Below the pieces are notes generated by a model. The model saw nothing but the letters and a program-made list of their open reading frames with translations, was not told the DNA's origin and did not search any database. This document shows, one piece after another, positions 15,359 through 27,797 of a stretch of 64,000 nt of DNA. Numbering within the stretch: position 1 is the stretch's first letter; each line of letters begins with the position of its first letter. The DNA is from Treponemataceae bacterium (GTDB taxonomy: Bacteria > Spirochaetota > Spirochaetia > Treponematales > Rectinemataceae), in assembly GCA_963678065.2 (NCBI GenBank), contig CAXXVZ010000003.1, positions 1,888,001-1,952,000 on the forward strand, read 5' to 3'. The translations under genes were made by a program, and so were the position numbers.

Positions 15359-18040
15359 TCACTGGCCGGCGCATCCGCCAGCGCCGGTTTCCGACGTATC
15401 GTCGAAAGGCCTATACTCGAGGTCGGCCCCATCGACATATCCTCCATTCTGGGGAATATTGACCACTCTCGTTATGTAGGCGACCTTCTCGTCTGCGCTC
15501 TTCTTTGTGATACGGACTGTGTAAGGGCCGACCTTCAGGGCGGAGAAAACATAGTACCCATCGTAAGCCGAGCGGACCGATCCGATCACCGCGCCGGAAC
15601 TGTCAAGCAGCTCGACGCGGGCGCCCGCCAACTCACGCCTCACGCCCCCCTCCACGGCCCATATCGTGCCGGAGACCTCCCCCGTGATCCAAACGGGGAA
15701 ATCCAGCCGCGCGGCCGTGCCCGGATGGAGCACGCAGCTCAGGCCCTTGTCGGCAGGGACGAGAAGAAGATCCTCGAGCGTCGTCTCGTCGACCTCCACG
15801 TTGAGCGGCAGATTTGCGGACAAACCGCGTAAAAACGCGTTGCCCTTCGCGTCCGTCAACGACTCGGCGCCGCTATCGTTCACGATAAATCCGACGTCCT
15901 TGAGAGCATCTTCACCTTTATCCCATTTTCTGTTGTAGTTCGCGTCGAGGTAGACGCGGGCCGCGATGGAGCCTTGCCCCGCTCCGCTCCGCGAATCCAC
16001 AGCGATGGCTCCGCTCTTCGAATCGAAGGCGATACTCGTCGAAATCGATAAACTTACCGAAAACGCGTTCCGTGTCGTCCAGGTTCCCGTGAGGCCTAGG
16101 CGCAAGGGGCTCACATCCCGGTAGAGCGAGATGGACGCGGAGAGAAGATCGGAGGAAAGCGAATACGTGGCTGCTCCGGAGACTTTAACCGACAAGAATG
16201 GGCCGGCTTCCGCCGAAAAGGATAGGCTCTCGATCGCCGCTTCGGGATAGATGTCGTAGCCGCAGGAGGCTTCCAAATCCACTTCCCCAATCCGCGCGTT
16301 GGCCGTCGTCGATCCATCTGCGTAAAGTACCTGCGATGAAGGCCCATAATAATGACGGGAAAGGTTTAGTTCATTTCGGAGACGGATGGCCCTATACGAG
16401 TTATAGTTTCGCAAGGCAAAAAGATCGTATCGGCAACCTTCCCTGTACAGCGTCGATATCCAGGAGGAAGAGAGGGAAGCATAGAATTTATCCATTTTCA
16501 AACTTAATCCGTCGACGCGCAGAACGCTCCGCGTTTGGTAGGGCGGATCGCTCGATGAGGCGTTCGCCTTTTCCCATTTATCGTCGTAATAGGTACCGCG
16601 CCATGAGAGCCCAAGGCCAAGGAGTTGGGTGCGCAAGCCGAGGTCGCCGGCGAACCCTGAATGGCGCGCATCGTAGGCTGCCGATACGTCGAACTGGAGG
16701 CGGCTGAAATATCCAGCCATTCCCGCTTGGACATGGAGGTTACGACCGTCGGGAAAGACACCAGAGAGCGCCGACGACGAGAACGTGAGGTATTTCGAAA
16801 GCCCGTAGGTTGTCTGGAGGGCGAACTGTCCCCCCTCTTCCTCGGCCGTGGCTGAAGCCCGGTAGGATAAGGTACCCGGCGGCGTCATGTTCGATCCCAC
16901 GTTGTAAATATGTTCCTCGGTCTTCTTCTGACCGAGAGGGCCATGGAACTCGAGTCTGAGCAAGTTGGTCCCGAATACGAGGGGGATATCGGCGAAGGTA
17001 TAGGTACCGCTCGCGTCCGCCTTCCTAAAGTCGAGATAGGAATCGTTCCGGTAGAGCTCCACGTCCCAACCTGAGAGAAGAGGCCCCGAAAGCGTCTGGA
17101 GATCGAAGTAGGAGGGGCTCGTGAGAGCATAGTTCCCGACCGAAGCGCCATAACCCGAAGCCGAGGCGCCCAAGAGGGAGGGAAGAACTGCCGATACCTT
17201 GCCTATGGAAAACTCCGTTCCGCCCAGGGAACCGAAAAGCTTGCCGTCGGGGTCCACTCTGCGGAGCACCCCATAAAGGCTGGTGGGAACGAAGTTCGAG
17301 CCGTCCAGCTTGCCCGCGACGGAGAGTGAGCCGCTCATCCACAGGAGGTCGCCCGTCAGGAGGGCGCTGTAGGTCGGTCCACTCAGGCTGACGCCATTGC
17401 CGCTGGATGAAGAATACAGCGAAGCCCCGACCGAAAAATCGAGGTTGAAGCCATCGAGAAAGCGGTAGGGGTTCGCCGCCCGAGGAAAATATGATCGTTC
17501 CTCGACACCATAGCGCGTGGTCTTGCCGCCCCGCTGCTCGCGCTCGAGACGGAGCTGGATAGGGAGTTTCGTCCGCGGCAGGAGGACGACGGCAGCGTCG
17601 TAGCGGTCGGCCTGAATGGGGATGCCGAACCATTCGGAGAGGAGGGAAACCTCAACATAGATGTCGTCGGGGTGGGCCACGATGCGCGCCTCATCGTAGA
17701 GGCCGCGCTCACCCGCAACCCGCACGCTCCGCGAAACCATGTCGAGGGAAAATGCATGCGCTTCGTCCCAGAGGTAGCCCGAGGCTGTTCCTCGCCCGGG
17801 ATCGACGTCGAGACCACACTCGATAAGGCGGCAGACCGTCCCTAGCGGAATAAAGAGCCCCCGCTCCGTCACATAGGTTTCCAACTCTTGGGAGAGCAAC
17901 TCGCGATCGACGTTTAGGGAGCAGAGAAGGAGTTCGTCCTCGTTGGGCGCGATGAGTGTAAAACCCAGTGCTTGGGCCCCGATGCGCGGAAGAGAGCAGA
18001 GAAGAACCAATGCATAAACGGCCACACACCATCGCCTCAT
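15359..18040 (-). CDS. Fimbrial usher-like outer-membrane protein
   Basis: 893 aa with signal peptide; VELYRND...GTYTFADIPLVFGTN...GPLGQ plug-like motif; beta-rich; C-terminal Ig/carboxypeptidase-regulatory-like domains; operon context. Confidence 0.7.
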   Translation of the reverse strand: MRRWCVAVYALVLLCSLPRIGAQALGFTLIAPNEDELLLCSLNVDRELLSQELETYVTERGLFIPLGTVCRLIECGLDVDPGRGTASGYLWDEAHAFSLDMVSRSVRVAGERGLYDEARIVAHPDDIYVEVSLLSEWFGIPIQADRYDAAVVLLPRTKLPIQLRLEREQRGGKTTRYGVEERSYFPRAANPYRFLDGFNLDFSVGASLYSSSSGNGVSLSGPTYSALLTGDLLWMSGSLSVAGKLDGSNFVPTSLYGVLRRVDPDGKLFGSLGGTEFSIGKVSAVLPSLLGASASGYGASVGNYALTSPSYFDLQTLSGPLLSGWDVELYRNDSYLDFRKADASGTYTFADIPLVFGTNLLRLEFHGPLGQKKTEEHIYNVGSNMTPPGTLSYRASATAEEEGGQFALQTTYGLSKYLTFSSSALSGVFPDGRNLHVQAGMAGYFSRLQFDVSAAYDARHSGFAGDLGLRTQLLGLGLSWRGTYYDDKWEKANASSSDPPYQTRSVLRVDGLSLKMDKFYASLSSSWISTLYREGCRYDLFALRNYNSYRAIRLRNELNLSRHYYGPSSQVLYADGSTTANARIGEVDLEASCGYDIYPEAAIESLSFSAEAGPFLSVKVSGAATYSLSSDLLSASISLYRDVSPLRLGLTGTWTTRNAFSVSLSISTSIAFDSKSGAIAVDSRSGAGQGSIAARVYLDANYNRKWDKGEDALKDVGFIVNDSGAESLTDAKGNAFLRGLSANLPLNVEVDETTLEDLLLVPADKGLSCVLHPGTAARLDFPVWITGEVSGTIWAVEGGVRRELAGARVELLDSSGAVIGSVRSAYDGYYVFSALKVGPYTVRITKKSADEKVAYITRVVNIPQNGGYVDGADLEYRPFDDTSETGAGGCAGQ

Positions 18041-18925
18041 GCTTTTTCAGCCTCATACACACTGTCTTACCCGACGCCCTCACTCAGGCATTAATTACCT
18101 ACTCATTCGAAACTCAAGTATTTTATCCATCAGATAAGTTCTACACATATTCTTGTTCTTTTATGGTATGGGAATTTCCGCGCTCGCAAGGACAGGAATG
18201 ACTTTCCCCTTAGCGTTGTAGGTATCCAGATAGCGAAGCCGAAGCGTCCCCCCATGAAAAGTATCAACAAGCTCGGGGGGCAGGCTTATCGGAAAGTTTA
18301 CAATTCTACGCTTGTTGGTCGCATATACAGTGAGCCCTTTCTTTTTTTCTAAAATAATGGGAACTTGTCCTGGCTGTATGTACTCGACCACCAAGTCTCC
18401 ATACAGCGACTGATTACCAGCGCGTTCAATCACAAAACTGAGTGTTCTGTTTTCCGGATTTAATCCAGGAGCCAATGTAATACCAACTATAGAAGCGGTC
18501 ACGGCAGTGGCCCCAGACCTGATGATAACGGGGACTGCTATGCCATATATGGGGGTTAATTTGATACGTAGTCCTTCTTCATCTTTAGAAGAAGCTGCGT
18601 CGCTCGCTGTGTCCGGTATAACGCTCACGACGAGATTCGAGCGGTACTCCCCATCAAGGAGGTCCGCAGGACGCAAAAACTGAAGCCTTACAATCTGCTG
18701 CATTTTGGCCCCAAGCGCAATCCTTTTAGGAGTTACCCGGAGAAATTGATCCGCAAAACAATCATCAGGCCTCGCAGAGTCTGCTCTTACCAGTTCACCC
18801 GTCTCCGACATTCTAAAGTTTACGAAACTGACTGAATATGTTTTTTGGCTCGTGCTAGGATTTATAATGATAAGCTCGGCAATACGACTGCGTCCTTCAA
18901 TCACTAGTCTAGTAGTCTGTAACAT

Positions 18926-19585
18926 CTAAATCTTTTCATCGATAATTGGATATAGACGTCTCAGTTTCGTTCTTGCGTCATGCGTTGTGAATTGCCAATC
19001 AACGCCGCGCTGATTTTTATTCCTGCTCACATACCAGCTCGCAAGTTCAGAATTAAGATCATCGAGACAATCGATTTTCCTTTTTGCCAAACACTGCCGA
19101 CCAAGCGCAGAGAGTTCAATTTCGGCAATATTCAGCCAACTTCCGTGCTTTGGTGTGTAGTGGATTTCAAGTCGCTGGGCCAGCTCGAACGCTTTCCGTG
19201 GCGGAAATGAGTCGTATAACGATGAAACACCATGGGTATTCAAGTTATCCATTACGAGAACAATCTTTTCTGCTGTTGGATATTCAACCATGAGGAGTTG
19301 TTCGATATAGTGTGCCCAATCAATCCTGGTCCGATGTTCTCGAGCATCAGTGTAGCGCCAGCCCCTCAATGGTTCGGTAAAGAGAAAAATACTACAGGTC
19401 CCTTTACGGACATATTCGGAATCTTGTCGCTCCGGTTTTCCCTTTCTCATAGCGATATGTTGCCGTCGATCAGCCAATAGCTGGATCGGCTTCTCATCCA
19501 TGCATACCACTGGACGATTGACGTTATAAGGCCTGCTATATACTTCCAGAACATCTTCCATTGCGGCAACGAAACGACCATTGGG
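18926..19585 (-). pseudogene. IS630 transposase DDE part
   Basis: [30 protein letters not shown]. Confidence 0.9.
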
Positions 19586-19649
19586 TGGACCTACCCCAAA
19601 CCAGTGGAGCATGAGTTAAGCCTCTCCGAGAATAAGGAGAGGAGAGGGT

Positions 19650-19902
19650 ATGGAAGACAAAAGAAGGAAGTACGCGGCAGAGTTCAAGAAAGAAGCACTT
19701 GAACACTTGGAACGGTCAGGCAGGAGTGCCCGGAACGTGGCCAAAGACTTGGGAATTGATCCTGGACTATTGTGCCGGTGGCGACGGGAGAGTCAGGAAA
19801 TACACAAACAAGCATTTACCGGACAAGGGAATGCACGTGATCAGGAAATGACCAGGCTGAAAAAGGAAAATGATGAACTTCGTGAGGCGAATGCAATACT
19901 AA
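19650..19902 (+). pseudogene. IS3 OrfA (5' part)
   Basis: RRKYAAEFKKEAL HTH...ENDELREANAILK; continues as KAVAIF after 21269. Confidence 0.9.
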
Positions 19903-19909
19903 AAGATGA

Positions 19910-20145
19910 TATGTTTCCCCTGGCGGTACAACGATCGTGGTAGGCTGGGTTCGACGGAACCCGGGAGCCGGCGGCAGGCAGTACGCGCTTTGTGGGGTAT
20001 GACCCCGGCTAAAAGATTATGCCCAGGCCGGTCGTCGAAAATCAGGGTGCAGGACGATGCTGCGGCAACGCCACTGCGAATAGAAGAATGTAGTACCACG
20101 TTGTATCGCTCAAAGACTTCCGGCTCCGATCTTTTTCCCGGGAGG
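19910..20145 (+). ncRNA. Candidate IS110 bridge/seek RNA
   Basis: About 250-nt structured non-coding left end with an internal loop carrying GCTTT and CTAAAA that match the insertion target. Confidence 0.6.
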
Positions 20146-20151
20146 CTGCGC

Positions 20152-21255
20152 ATGGGGAAGGAAACAGGGCGTTTTATTGGCATCGACCTTTCGAAGAGGA
20201 CCTACGAGGCGGTTGCCATCGATGGAAAGACCGAATCAATCCAGCGGTGGAATGGCAAGCTCGATATTCGAGGCCGCCGCAGCCTTGCGGAAAGGGTTCG
20301 ACCAGGCGACACCATCGCGATGGAAGCTGGTACCTCCTCATTCCAGATAGCGAAGGAACTCATGGAGCACCCCGACATACAGGTCCTTGTCCTGAACGCG
20401 GCTGACCTGGCGGTGATCCATAAGTCGCTCAAGAAGTCGGACCGTGAGGACGCGCTCAAGCTCGCGCGACTTGTGCAAAAGTTCAATGCTGACGAATTGC
20501 CGACAGTGCCAGTGCCCTCGGATGAAGAGATGGATCGTCGGGCACTTTCGTCCCATGAAGACCGCTTTCGCAGGGATAGAACTCGCCTTATAAACCGTCT
20601 TCATGCGGTGTTTCTCCGATGTGGCATTCCTGACCATACCAAGGCCCAGCTTAAGAAGGCAGCCACGAGGGAACGGCTCATCGAAACCGAACTTGCCGGC
20701 TTCAGCAAGACGGAGGCCATTAACCTCCATCACATGATCTCGGAATATGAGCAGATCCTCGCCGGGTTGGTCGAAGAGATCGGGGCTTCGGTGATGAAGG
20801 GCGGGGAGTCTGCGCACATCCTCATGTCGCTCCCTGGCTTTGGCATCAAGACGACGATGGCCATCCTGGCATACGCGGGAGACATGCGCCGCTTTAGCGG
20901 ACCAGCCCAGTTGGTCAACTATGTTGGGTTGTCGCCACGGCTTCACGAATCGGGAGAACTTGAACGCAAGGGCTCAATCACGAAGCGAGGCAATGCGCAT
21001 CTTCGGGGCCTGCTTGTCCAGAGCGCCTGGGGACTTATTCGCAGTAAATGCTCAAACCCGCTCAAGTCCCACTATGAGGCAATGATCTCCAGAGGGAAAG
21101 CGCCTTCTATCGCGGTCGTCGCGACCGCCCGGAAGCTGCTCGAGATGGTCTATATTTTGCTCACACGAGGGGAACGCTACCGGTACACGGATGACATGAT
21201 ATTTGCTCTCAAGCTCAAGAGGTCAGGATTGGCAATTCTCGGAGCCGGAGGTTGA
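20152..21255 (+). CDS. IS110-family DEDD recombinase
   Basis: IGIDLSK, IAMEAG, KSDREDA; C-terminal SLPGFG, YVGLSPRLHESG, ITKRGNAHLR; RBS GGGAGG before ATG 20152. Confidence 0.95.
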   Translation: MGKETGRFIGIDLSKRTYEAVAIDGKTESIQRWNGKLDIRGRRSLAERVRPGDTIAMEAGTSSFQIAKELMEHPDIQVLVLNAADLAVIHKSLKKSDREDALKLARLVQKFNADELPTVPVPSDEEMDRRALSSHEDRFRRDRTRLINRLHAVFLRCGIPDHTKAQLKKAATRERLIETELAGFSKTEAINLHHMISEYEQILAGLVEEIGASVMKGGESAHILMSLPGFGIKTTMAILAYAGDMRRFSGPAQLVNYVGLSPRLHESGELERKGSITKRGNAHLRGLLVQSAWGLIRSKCSNPLKSHYEAMISRGKAPSIAVVATARKLLEMVYILLTRGERYRYTDDMIFALKLKRSGLAILGAGG

Positions 21256-21269
21256 CAGGAAACATAGAA

Positions 21270-22176
21270 AAAAAGCCGTCGCCATCTTCTCGGTACCCCG
21301 AAGGGGGAATTAGCCCGAGTCTACCAGTTCATGGTCGACCACCGGAGGCAGTGGTCGATACGGAAGATGGCGACATATCTGGAAGTCTCCGTTTCGGGGT
21401 ACTATGCGTGGAAATCGAGAAAACCAAGCCGTCACGCACTGCTGGATGCCGAATTGGTCAAGAAGATCAAAGCCATCCAGAAACAGCATCACCGGCGATA
21501 CGGGAGTCCGCGCATCCACGAAGAATTGCGCGATACAGGCTATGGAGTGTCGCGTAAACGGGTGGCCAGACTCATGCGGGAGAATGATCTGGGAAGCCTG
21601 CCGAAGAAGAAATACGTTGTCACGACAGACTCGAATCATGGAGAACCGGTAGCGGAAAACCTGCTTGACCGACAGTTTGACGTACCGCTGCCGGGTCTCG
21701 TCTGGGTTTCTGACATCACGTATTGCCCGACAACCGAGGGCTGGCTGTATCTGTGTGTCGTTATCGACCTCTGCACCCGTCACGTCGTCGGCTGGTCGAC
21801 CCGCGATGACATGACCTCCCAGATTGTGGTGGATGCTTTTGTCATGGCCGTTATCCGATATGGGTATAAGCCAGGACTTCTCTTCCACTCTGATCGGGGC
21901 GTCCAGTATTGTTCCACCGCATTGAGGTCACTACTGGCGGAGAGGAAAGGAATTGTTCAAAGCATGAGCCGAAAGGGCAATTGCTGGGATAATGCCTGTG
22001 CGGAATCCTTTTTCAAAACGTTGAAACGGGAATTAGAGACTCTGAATGGTACATATTCCAGAGAAAGGGTCCGTCATGATCTTTTCGAGTACATCGAGGT
22101 CTACTACAATCGGATCAGGCGGCATTCGCACAATGCGATGAAACCGCCGGTATCACAGGCGACGAGAGTGGCTTAA
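21270..22176 (+). pseudogene. IS3 OrfB (rve integrase), separated from OrfA
   Basis: YGSPRI, WVSDITY, HSDRGVQY, SRKGNCWDNACAESFF. Confidence 0.9.
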
Positions 22177-22206
22177 CTACCTGTCCATTCGGTCGGGGCA
22201 AGTCCA

Positions 22207-22703
22207 GTGCTGGGGAGGAATACACCAGCATTTTTTCAAGTGAGGTTTAAATTCGTTTTTTTTAGTGTCCTGTTGATCGTCATTGGAGAAATGGCATTGA
22301 TAATTCCAAGTTCAACACATTTGTCTGCCAGAAGACGGACCGTCCATCGCGTATACCCTTCGGGAGGATTGCTGCAACACAAGGCGATGATGTGCGCTTC
22401 AACGTCACCAGTGACTTTGGGCGCAATAGGCGGCGTTGTCCGTTTCTTTCTCTGAAGAAAAAAATCAAGCGATGGGCTATGCAGGAAAGCGTCCTTGATC
22501 ACTTGTATTGTTTGTCTGCTCACCTGGTACATATTCGCGATTTGCCCATCATGCAGAGGTGTCCGATTATTCGAAGTATCCAAGGCAAGAACGATCTGTG
22601 CCCGCCTGGTCAGGCGGACACTTTTGGAACCACTTGATAAATACAATAGGAATCTGTTCCGCTGTTCCGAGGATAAAACGATCTTTTTCTTGGTCTTTGC
22701 CAT
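22207..22703 (-). pseudogene. IS630 transposase HTH part with A8 -1 frameshift site
   Basis: PPEGYTRWTVRLLAD...TLKK; the -1 frame continues NEFKPHLKKCWCIPPQH. Confidence 0.85.
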
Positions 22704-22914: not shown

Positions 22915-23409
22915 TCATTCATTTGACTGTATCGTTACTGAAAACGTACCAGTATATTGCCCAGCAGCTTGACCCGAATTAACATTCAAAGTAGCTCCAA
23001 CAGTAAATACACAGTGTCCATCTCCGCCGCATTGGCCAGAGTTGTTGACGCATGAAGAAGAAAAACCCGACACACTCATAGTCGCCCCGCCTGGGCCAGT
23101 CAACGTTACAACATCATCGGCAGGCAGAATAACACTGAAGGTTTGATTGCTTGTCCCTGTTGCCGTGAAAGACGCAGCGTAGCGTGCACTGCCTCCGCTC
23201 CTACTTACTGGATACAAGTTGTTAGCTGTATTTGAACCGTCCGGAGCAATGGTAAGAGAACCAGAAGTCAATTGGATCGCCATTGCCCCAAAATTTAGAC
23301 CACAGGTATTTGTCAATGATAAAGCTTCTGCAGAAAGATTCAGGACAAGGCTCGTAAGGAAAACTATGCAAACAGTAAATATTTTCATCTTCCTTTCCAT
23401 ACTTATCAT
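22915..23409 (-). CDS. DUF4402-like fimbrial subunit
   Basis: Signal peptide, LNFG, FTVGATLNVNSGQAAGQYTGTFSVTI. Confidence 0.8.
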   Translation of the reverse strand: MISMERKMKIFTVCIVFLTSLVLNLSAEALSLTNTCGLNFGAMAIQLTSGSLTIAPDGSNTANNLYPVSRSGGSARYAASFTATGTSNQTFSVILPADDVVTLTGPGGATMSVSGFSSSCVNNSGQCGGDGHCVFTVGATLNVNSGQAAGQYTGTFSVTIQSNE

Positions 23410-23480
23410 ATGACTGACAATGCGTGGTCGGAGAAAAATGAATACCTCATATCTCCCCGACCGCGCCAGAAATGATAAAA

Positions 23481-24062
23481 TCAGTACTCGGTTGTGTTTA
23501 CAATAATGGAATAGGTTCCTGTATAAGTTCCAGTATTTTGGCTTCCATTTACATGAAGTGTCGCACCAATAACGAATGACACCGTCTGGATACCAGTAGA
23601 ATCAGCAACTTGATATCCAGAACTGGAAACTGAAGTAAGAGTACCAGAATCAAGAGAAGCATATGCTAAAAACGTATCAGCATACATAGAATTAGCACCG
23701 CTCGTTACAGGTACACGATCGCTTAAATAGACAAAATATGTCTTCAAGCCAGAGTTCGCAGGAACAGTCATGGTAAATTTGCCAGACGAAAGAGCATTGG
23801 CAGTTGTTACCTTGGTGCCACTTGCAACAGCCACTCCCCCCGTAGTCGCCACACTCACATTTCCAGACACATTATATGGTGCTAGAGTAATTGTCCCAGC
23901 AGTTGCACTTGGAATAATAAGCCCAAAATTCATCTGCGTTGCTTCGGTGAGGGTTTCACTCGTAATAACGCTTGCATTAATAGTGCCATTCCCCGCAAAC
24001 ACATTCCCCGCAGTGACGAGCAGCCCAACGGCGATCAGAAAGACGACGAAAGCTTTCTTCAT
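23481..24062 (-). CDS. DUF4402-like fimbrial subunit (probable major pilin)
   Basis: Signal peptide, MNFG, FVIGATLHVNGSQNTGTYTGTYSIIV. Confidence 0.8.
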   Translation of the reverse strand: MKKAFVVFLIAVGLLVTAGNVFAGNGTINASVITSETLTEATQMNFGLIIPSATAGTITLAPYNVSGNVSVATTGGVAVASGTKVTTANALSSGKFTMTVPANSGLKTYFVYLSDRVPVTSGANSMYADTFLAYASLDSGTLTSVSSSGYQVADSTGIQTVSFVIGATLHVNGSQNTGTYTGTYSIIVNTTEY

Positions 24063-24304
24063 ACGACGCTCCCTAAACCTCAATGACTGGACCTGCACAG
24101 GCAGGTCTCGATTTGGAGAAAATCTTCTCCGGAATCGCTAGAGCTACTATTCTTTCATTTGCAGCGCGGTTCTATTATGGATTGCACTAGTGTGAGGCAA
24201 AAAAAACATGAACCCTGCGTAGTGAAAAAGTTGAGGTTCATAAGCTAAAAAGAATGGACAAGCGGCATGGAGCCCCCCACTAAGGGGAATATAAGGCGCT
24301 CGGC

Positions 24305-26402: not shown

Positions 26403-27797
26403 GAGGCTCTTTCAAAAGTCATGAGATGAACGAATTTTAATGAAAAGCGGGGACAGAACCTGTATGATGATGTTGCAACACAAACGTCACCAGGAGGAGC
26501 CCCCGCTGATGAAAACCATACCAGAAATACTGGGCGGAGCGCAAATACTTTTGCCGATTTCCTACGATATCCAGCGATGTTTCGAAGAATATCTCACCGA
26601 CGAGCATCGCTTTTTTATCGCCCTGCTCAGAGTCATTGAAGATGCTCAGCCACGGATTACATCACCATGTGCACGGACTGGCCGTCCTCCACATCGGAAC
26701 GAACCGATCATGCGGGCGTTTTTCGCCCGAACGGTATTCCACATAGCGACAGTCACGGACCTTAGGAACAGGCTGATCAACGATCCGAATCTGCGGAGGA
26801 TATGCGGCTTCACCTCCGTTCCAAGCTCTGCGACCTTTTCGCGTCGCTACGCGGAGTTTTCAAAAAAGACTCCGCTGATTCAGACTTTGAATACCATGGT
26901 GAAGGATTGTCATGACGGCCATATCGTCGGACACATAAATCGGGATGCGACGGAGATACGAGCACGAGAAAAACCTGTACCTGCCAAACGTGAAGCTGTT
27001 TCTTCCGTGACACCGCAACGGAAACGAGGTCGTCCCCGAAAAGGAGAAGTTCGGCCTGTGAAGGAGCCGACACAGATAGAAAAGCAAGTCGGCCAAAGCG
27101 TCAGGAAATCCTTGTCAGAACTATCCAAAGACTGTGCATGGGGATGCAAGAAGAACAGCCAGGGGAATAGGGAAACATGGAAAGGATACAAGTTGCACCT
27201 TGATGTCAGCGACACAGGATTCCCTATTTCAGCAGTCGTAACCGGCGCCAATGTTCATGATTCGCAAGTAGCGATTCCTCTGGAAAAGATAACAGAGAAA
27301 AAGGTCCGACATCTGTATTCAGTCATGGACGCTGCATACGATGCGGATCCCATCGCGACCTATATCCAGGGACGTGGGCGTGTTCCGCTGATTGATCGGA
27401 ATACGCGTCGTGGGACGGAACGGGAACCATTTTCGCCGTCACAGAAGGAGCGGTACACAATCAGGACAACGGTTGAACGTGCAAACTCGCATTTGAAGGA
27501 TTGGCTCATACCGGGTCAGATATTTGTACGGGGATTTGAGAAAGTATCATTCCTGCTCATGTGCGGGGTAGTGGTTCTGGCGGCCGTCAAGGCTTTGCAG
27601 TACTTCATCCTTCCCGAACTGCAGAAATCGTAACCGGGCAATCCGGCAGAACCGGATTTTGTAGGGGTAGTCCATCTTTTGCACTGAAAAGAGAGCCCTT
27701 TTTACTGCACATGTAATTTTTACTGTGCAAAAACGAAGCTTCAGTTACAATAACTCGCTTTTTTACAAAGCGGATTACGAAGTTTTGAAAAAGCCTC
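26403..27797 (+). mobile_element. IS element (IS5/IS1182-like DDE)
   Basis: IRs GAGGCT(C/T)TTTCAAAA; 4-bp target duplication TCAT (26399-26402, 27798-27801). Confidence 0.85.
26509..27633 (+). CDS. DDE transposase (DUF772 + DDE_Tnp_1-like)
   Basis: PSSATFSR, DAT, GYKLHL, DAAYD, RTTVERANSHLK; RBS AGGAGG. Confidence 0.9.
   Translation: MKTIPEILGGAQILLPISYDIQRCFEEYLTDEHRFFIALLRVIEDAQPRITSPCARTGRPPHRNEPIMRAFFARTVFHIATVTDLRNRLINDPNLRRICGFTSVPSSATFSRRYAEFSKKTPLIQTLNTMVKDCHDGHIVGHINRDATEIRAREKPVPAKREAVSSVTPQRKRGRPRKGEVRPVKEPTQIEKQVGQSVRKSLSELSKDCAWGCKKNSQGNRETWKGYKLHLDVSDTGFPISAVVTGANVHDSQVAIPLEKITEKKVRHLYSVMDAAYDADPIATYIQGRGRVPLIDRNTRRGTEREPFSPSQKERYTIRTTVERANSHLKDWLIPGQIFVRGFEKVSFLLMCGVVVLAAVKALQYFILPELQKS

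Follow-up and report, generated by a model that had tools for sequence, protein, structure and literature searches.

Results

Nested insertion elements and an intact recombinase

The window, by which we mean the whole 64,000-nucleotide stretch of DNA that was analysed, contains a triple nesting in which an IS110-family element lies within a plus-strand IS3 element, and the IS3 in turn within a minus-strand IS630. The IS630 (18926..22703) is split by the IS3 into orfs at 22236-22703 and 18926-19585, and the triplets that flank the IS3 are GGG and GTG. The IS630 is itself flanked (15359-18925 and 22915-24098) by minus-strand usher-like and chaperone-like ORFs and by plus-strand small pilin-like (spore-coat U type) ORFs, which, to judge by their sequence features, look like a cluster of the chaperone-usher type that the nested elements have interrupted. 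A transposase-like ORF of 397 aa is found nearby, at 26440-27633.

The host IS3 (19586..22206, plus strand) displays the characteristic features of its family, namely TG...CA ends, an orfA with a helix-turn-helix followed by a DDE orfB in the -1 frame, a slippery A-run and a 3-bp duplication. The duplication is GGG/GGG at an identical 2,621-bp copy elsewhere in the source genome (G000:C3:1149837-1152457) and GGG/GTG in the window, which suggests a change after insertion. Its orfA (19650..19903) is cut at ILK, reads into the IS110 element and stops at 19943, and the orfB frame (21268..22176; NF033516, 334 bits against a cut-off of 160) is separated from it; from what IS3 biology implies, the OrfAB fusion transposase would thus not be made. 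The slippery site itself is divided into a left half, CTAAA (19899..19903), recognized from the sequence and from empty-site relatives, and a right half of six A followed by GC (21269..21276), which holds two A more than the native A7 prediction.

Between orfA and orfB lies an intact DEDD/Ser recombinase of 367 aa (20152-21255, plus strand; GGAGG upstream at 20141-20145), just as the original prediction had claimed. Its open frame matches the Pfam domains DEDD_Tnp_IS110 and Transposase_20 as well as NCBIfam NF033542 (211.7 bits, cut-off 140), and the motifs D12/E58/D97/D100 and S267 could be located, so that both the RuvC-like DEDD domain and the Tnp domain with its catalytic serine, which define the IS110 family in the broad sense, are present. 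The source genome (G000) also contains six weaker IS110-like matches with 28-35% identity.

Ends, core and likely native target site

Comparison of 69 metagenome loci, together with loci from family and phylum searches, revealed that the ends of the element are kept in relatives, reading AG-ATGA-TATG on the left and CATAG(A/G) on the right, in each case with subterminal repeats. In the window, the left subterminal inverted repeat TATGTTTCC (19910..19918) and the right one GGAAACATA (21258..21266) form a perfect 9-bp pair. The AG at 19904..19905 represents the core dinucleotide, the reverse complement of the CT core of IS621, and wherever both ends are available (42 of 42 loci) the donor guide spells the same core as the left end.

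The exact bounds were deduced from a sister clade, the host IS3 of which occurs empty in genome G050 (GGCT-A9-GTAC; its OrfA is 100% identical to that of locus L016). The filled A9 copies L016, L018 and L072 carry 3+6 A, matching the empty A9 without duplication, and the element would accordingly span from AG to CATAGA with no duplicated target; in L017, L019, L022 and L030 the count is lower by one or two (8 or 7 A). The same bounds applied to the window give an element of 1,365 bp (19904..21268, plus strand) and an implied A9GC site, as 3+6 = 9 target A flank it, an excess of two over A7. Uninterrupted relatives of the window's host (L100, L101) read CT-A7-GC, and the OrfA of P0122, which is 91% identical, ends in LKKAVAIFSVPRRGN, the tail of the window's right flank; A7 is thus likely the native site of this host. 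A native A9GC host was rejected, because the relatives read LKKA. Hence the A7 slippery site at the orfA/orfB junction of an IS3 element, as originally proposed, remains the likely target, whereas the ends assigned originally (19903-21269) each move inwards by one nucleotide. The two extra A could reflect a register slip at insertion, a prior expansion or later slippage.

Donor and target cores differ in 13 of the 42 loci, and there the left junction always carries the donor core and the right junction the other one (five further loci, the left end of which is missed by the end pattern, are truncated or have variant spacing). By its sequence signature this one-sided asymmetry would suit one-strand transfer, as proposed for CazIS110-1 in the accessible part of that report (bioRxiv 10.1101/2025.10.25.684509), or else selection for guide-matching junctions. 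In one subgroup (L029, L040, L050, L054, L076, L093), AT has replaced AG as the core, jointly in the left end and in the two guides.

A promoter predicted at the circle junction

When the two ends are joined with a single core, all 44 of 44 reconstructed junctions have TTGAC(A/G/T) or TTGAAA followed, after a spacer of 17 nt, by a TATG(A/T/C)T-type box, predicting a sigma-70 promoter at the circle junction. In the window, the predicted -35 box TTGACA lies at 21252..21257 (plus strand), and the first six bases of the left subterminal repeat provide the predicted -10 box; a promoter scan of the linear left end gave no hit. The donor junction with four A that had been proposed earlier gives way to CATAGA-AG-ATGAT, with two A, in the family data; the four-A version was rejected because it would make the spacer 19 nt. 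Whether excision restores the host is disputed: according to the accessible parts of the respective reports, post-excision sites were assayed for IS621 (PMC13626964), and neither for ISEc11 (PMC11187229) nor for CazIS110-1 (bioRxiv 10.1101/2025.10.25.684509) could a rejoined target be detected.

A predicted bridge RNA in the upstream non-coding end

The element has 248 nt of non-coding sequence upstream of the gene and 13 nt downstream of it. In an alignment of 38 non-redundant relatives (<90% identity), three elements of a predicted bridge RNA could be discerned, all on the plus strand. First, a 5' stem-loop (19945..19964) folds alone, and each of its eight pairs is preserved in 37-38 of 38 relatives, with 9-20 compensatory changes for most of them. 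Second, a predicted target-binding loop (19967..20032) is composed of an outer stem, a 12x12 internal loop and a capping hairpin (19993-20007); the pairs of this hairpin (19994-19997/20003-20006) form in 37-38 of 38 relatives, and each shows 8-16 double changes. Third, a hairpin that would cap the predicted donor-binding loop (20048..20078) likewise shows compensatory changes. The stem and hairpin described in the original prediction therefore hold up in so far as they fold as described when taken alone and are backed by compensatory changes; their energy, on the other hand, is no better than that of shuffled sequences (19967-20032, z -0.34), and the whole 256-nt 5' end folds differently (z 0.71). 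An Rfam search returned 0 matches. By computation, then, covariation of the stems and four guides point to a long structured non-coding end whose guides match both target and donor.

Guides covary with the flanking DNA

The four guides lie on the plus strand of this predicted RNA. The right-target guide (19982..19991), with GCTTT at 19987-19991, pairs with the top strand; the left-target guide CTAAA is followed by the core AG and by a predicted handshake AT, identical to the first two donor bases (20009..20017). A right-donor guide AATCAG (20040..20045), absent from the original prediction, precedes the left-donor guide ATAGA with its core AG (20080..20086).

At this single locus the evidence is weak, given that both short target matches co-occur in 35 of 3000 shuffles, and over six positions the window's guide fits A7 (4), A8 (5) and A9 (4) about equally. 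Across relatives of 34-70% identity, however, the predicted target guides vary in step with the flanking DNA. The left-target guide (20009-20013), compared with the five bases left of the core for 28 distinct guides from 52 loci, matched on average 4.71 of 5 positions against 1.71 when permuted (maximum 2.64 in 20,000 permutations), and at least four of the five positions match in 51 of the 52 loci. It is followed by the core in 28 of 28 guides, and the two handshake bases equal the first donor bases in 26 of 28 and 25 of 28. The right-target guide, taken as the segment up to 19991, complements the right flank at 4.72 of 6 positions against 2.67 permuted (32 guides from 45 loci, taking the best of three registers in data and permutations alike); its register moves by 1-3 nt across the family. 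The right-donor guide scored 3.78 of 6 against 2.73 in 27 guide/end pairs, in a register chosen from four offsets and then confirmed by an unbiased scan. None of 20,000 permutations reached the observed value for any of these three guides; the permutations ignore kinship, though guides differ widely between subgroups. Excluded beforehand were L001-L007 (distant), L008 (a duplicate of the window copy), L085 (broken end), L032 (N in the flank), eight loci without anchors and loci lacking the end concerned.

The unbiased scan over 454-474 placements put its top peaks at 20009 (left target, z 14.2) and 19986/19987 (right target, z 6.2/5.8), that is, exactly at the GCTTT (19987) and CTAAAA (20009) originally singled out as target guides, and its right-donor peak at 20041 (z 8.2). 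The ATAGAA at 20080 proposed as a donor guide is also borne out, in that ATAGA is identical to the final five bases of the element's right end in all 42 of 42 loci. In contrast, the other suggested donor guide, ATCTTTT at 20129, reached a z of no more than 2.3 (12 placements, 20127-20132) and has to be dropped in favour of 20041.

These data bear directly on the explanation that the matches between the non-coding end and the flanks arise by chance in A/T-rich sequence. The shuffles of the window locus and the folding z-scores near zero are what such an explanation would anticipate; nevertheless, the same positions match unrelated and often GC-rich flanks in 28-32 guides, and the near-complete left matches recur in all loci but one. 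We consider chance hardly credible, and the guide–flank covariation effectively refutes it. One large subgroup (L037, L039, L046, L052, L053, L056, L059, L063-L066, L068, L069, L086, L087, L094) has guides that match its own targets, intergenic repeats of the type CACAG-AG-(G/A)CAC(A/G)GAG, possibly REP-like repeats.

IS3 frameshift sites as probable targets of the clade

Among 19 loci at 59-70% identity to the window element, 16 have a visible junction, and 11 of these sit in the A9 (LKKKY) frameshift site of a second IS3 group; three lie in non-IS3 A-rich DNA and two are mixed, the latter probably being assembly chimeras (metagenome contigs of multi-copy elements, such as L022 and L032, can be chimeric). 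The right guide of the sister clade consists of TAC or TAT plus 5-7 T, matching an A-run followed by GTA, whereas that of the window consists of GC plus 3 T, matching an A-run followed by GC. The two host IS3 groups are distant (28% identity in OrfA, about 30% in OrfB), which implies at least two independent entries. As read from these sequences, IS3 frameshift sites are over-represented among the insertions of the clade, and the T-run of its right guide apparently follows the host A-run (3 T for A7GC, 5-7 T for A9GT). The central proposal of the original prediction, namely that the guide RNA is directed at the frameshift site of IS3, thus gains support from the covariation and from a sister clade with a retuned guide in a second IS3 group; tabulating the flanks of homologues favoured it through covariation and the 11 of 16 loci, and the three in non-IS3 DNA count against it.

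The latter observation raises the possibility that the clade is a generalist for A-runs, with a real guide that is short and tolerant of wobble, for which IS3 sites are merely the commonest perfect match in GC-rich genomes, there being no selection for IS3. Insertions L015, L021 and L023 in non-IS3 A-rich DNA speak in its favour, as do the guide core, which is AG where IS3 sites offer AA (L015 and L021 use AG sites), and the window-type (A7) pattern, only 3 of the 14 matches of which in five related genomes are IS3 sites, the other 11 not being IS3. Moreover, the near-identical elements L015, L023 and L071 (96-97%) occupy both IS3 and non-IS3 sites. What such a generalist does not readily explain is that the guide goes from GT to GC, and its T-run shortens, when the host group changes, nor that 11 of 16 loci fall in IS3. 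Furthermore, in five genomes chosen for carrying such IS3, the A9-type pattern has 16 exact matches, of which 15 are frameshift sites of IS3 elements, among them those of a third IS3 group (two sites in genome G026 were assigned by sharing the site sequence with a tested one). On balance we regard the generalist reading as possible and rather unlikely. On the tree, the label IS3_A9 needs 2 changes, and 59 of 500 shuffles were as low. The third IS3 group (L157-L159, in G026) has a long OrfA (162-aa frame) and the same LKKKY A9 site in three uninvaded copies. Genome G040 (L109, L131) has many IS3 copies with variable A-run lengths, several with fused 394-aa frames, which may stem from variation of the homopolymer or from mistakes in assembly.

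For the guide of the window element, a single type of site is on record, in two identical copies. The source genome has exactly two copies of this IS110 element, both in identical 2,621-bp IS3::IS110 composites that share the two extra A. The second composite interrupts a CRISPR repeat (of the GTTTCAATCCAC... type) with a GGG duplication; the array there contains one spacer repeated four to five times consecutively. No intact copy of the window's IS3 was found in the G000 assembly, which likewise has no empty exact A7-type site left, and its three A9GT IS3 copies are uninvaded; together these observations lend mild support to IS3 as the target. The non-coding end occurs only in G000 among 401 genomes of the order, with no close copy in the 400 others, the left-junction pattern gave five one-mismatch matches outside G000 in 401 genomes of the phylum, and no relatives were found in the viral contigs searched. 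Scanning genome contigs with the single protein yielded just seven distant loci, which were set aside. The two composites may have arisen through insertion of the IS110 into two IS3 copies already in place, through gene conversion, or because the composite itself moved.

It is conceivable, then, that real insertions were few and that IS110 entered IS3 once per lineage, thereafter spreading by gene conversion or as an IS3 passenger (with transposase acting in trans or following excision), in which case the enrichment would be overstated. This would account for two copies that show no difference over 2,621 bp, share even the extra A and both lie between IS3-type triplets in an assembly with no intact copy of this IS3, and for the sometimes similar identities of IS110 and host (89 versus 86% for L016/L020). 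It is at odds with L016 and L017, which lie at different loci and the IS110 elements of which differ at 3 of 1371 positions while their host flanks differ at 14 of 630 (p 2e-5), so that the hosts are ten times more diverged than the elements (the L022/L024 and L025 pairs were left out of these counts because of indels or contig ends). It also fails to predict that the element of L071 is 96% like elements outside IS3, or that two distant host groups were hit. The A9 site is, in addition, occupied by at least five IS110 variants, 76-89% alike over their first 560 nt, which together with L016/L017 favours repeated insertion. As a general account we consider passenger spread distinctly improbable; it may apply to the two window-type copies specifically.

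Relation to known IS110 and IS1111 systems

The best named match of the recombinase is ISLin1 (Leptospira, as annotated in plasmid records; 35%, E 2e-64). ISLin1 has the same RNA scaffold, ends and AG core, yet differs in its guides and its non-IS3 flanks and falls outside the 100/100-supported clade of the window element, in a protein tree that was built without IS1111 or IS621 references (named elements are 23-35% identical). In the available portions of the supplements of the 2024 IS110 papers, ISLin1 appears only as a listed transposase.

The element shares with the IS1111 group (ISEc11, IS4321/IS5075, ISKpn4) its guide order, the top-strand complement preceding the bottom-strand match, and an apparent lack of a duplication, and several IS1111 members target other mobile elements. 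Its 9-bp subterminal inverted repeats fall within the 7-17 bp of that group. The right subterminal repeat of IS1111 elements is offset by 3 bp. The left one lies 7 bp inside, in likeness to the repeats described here (accessible text of PMC11187229). In contrast to that group, the long non-coding region of the window element is upstream of the gene, a rare exception among IS1111 elements of which ISMtsp17 is an example (same source, same part), and its protein has 367 aa where IS1111 proteins have 330-350 (identity to IS5075, IS5708 and ISShdy1 is 23-27%). Conversely, the upstream region agrees with the IS110 group of IS621/ISEc21 type, whereas the absent or very short subterminal repeats and the left-guide-first order of that group do not. 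Owing to this combination of IS1111 guide order and subterminal repeats with an upstream RNA, we file the element as IS110 family in the broad sense, ISLin1-like, in neither subgroup.

Two members of the IS110 group provide close parallels. ISEc21, as portrayed in the accessible part of Siddiquee et al. 2024 (PMC11187229), targets a conserved IS3-family motif, the DDE codons, and resembles our element in being RNA-guided from an upstream non-coding region, in its IS3 target, in a circle promoter and in the apparent absence of target duplication; it differs in that our element has the top-strand complement first and 9-bp subterminal repeats. IS621 likewise has a 5' stem-loop, a target loop and a donor loop in its left end (PMC11208160, PMC11208158 and PMC13626964, as far as their available text extends), a 2-nt core of which one base is strict and the other loose, an AU handshake after the second target guide that matches the donor, and a -35 box in the right end with the -10 box in the left. 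The strand is cut after its CT core, the second base of which is strict, and the AU handshake pairs with the donor after exchange (PMC11208158, available text). Unlike IS621, the window element has DNA sites that run the other way round with respect to its RNA and gene, and long subterminal repeats; protein similarity to IS621 extends over the Tnp domain only (E 1e-14). The IS621 geometry nevertheless fits if the DNA is turned round: CT then becomes AG, the more constant base of this core stands first, and the handshake comes after the second guide.

Discussion

Taken together, the sequence comparisons place an IS110-family element in the slippery A-run between orfA and orfB of an IS3 element, and we think it highly probable that its 5' end encodes a bridge RNA, the target loop of which reads this site and the donor loop of which reads the element's own joined ends. 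By analogy with IS621, ISEc11 and ISEc21, an excised circle would join TTGACA to TATGTT at 17 nt and could thereby transcribe both the RNA and the recombinase. The guide CTAAA-AG would then pair with the bottom strand to the left of the site, and GCTTT with the top strand to its right; if the IS621 geometry holds with the DNA turned round, the first cut would fall in the bottom strand, to the left of the core, and the AT following the core would serve as handshake. The insertion has parted orfA from orfB, such that no OrfAB transposase could be produced.

We tentatively extend this proposal to a bridge-recombinase lineage that might have specialised on programmed-frameshift signals, retuning its guide to the run of each IS3 group, shutting off OrfAB, riding the disabled IS3 and at times slipping register, thereby editing the length of the A-run; the mismatched cores, one-sided in 13 of 13 cases, would then be a record of single-strand transfer in an IS1111-oriented system. 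This extension is speculative and may well be wrong. It is plausible that the element may act as a hyperparasite of a motif that IS3 cannot easily mutate, albeit one not exclusive to IS3, as illustrated by the three of 16 close loci outside IS3 and the 3 of 14 pattern matches within it.

A literature search that covered few subscription journals and had ISfinder outside its range found no report of IS110 elements targeting frameshift sites. What is described here is thus a known mechanism directed at a new target; the mechanism itself is not new. The frameshift signal would be, after the DDE codons aimed at by ISEc21, the second conserved IS3 motif at which RNA-guided IS110 elements are directed. 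One clade invading two IS3 groups, with guides that differ as the A-runs do, would constitute a natural reprogramming pair, with which both the register of a bridge RNA in a homopolymer and the curbing of IS3 spread become testable. More broadly, about 30 natural guide/target pairs are available from the ISLin1-like family, in an unusual layout that combines an upstream RNA and IS1111 orientation with a clear donor loop and handshake, and these may prove useful for the classification of IS110 and IS1111 elements as well as for the mining of recombinases.
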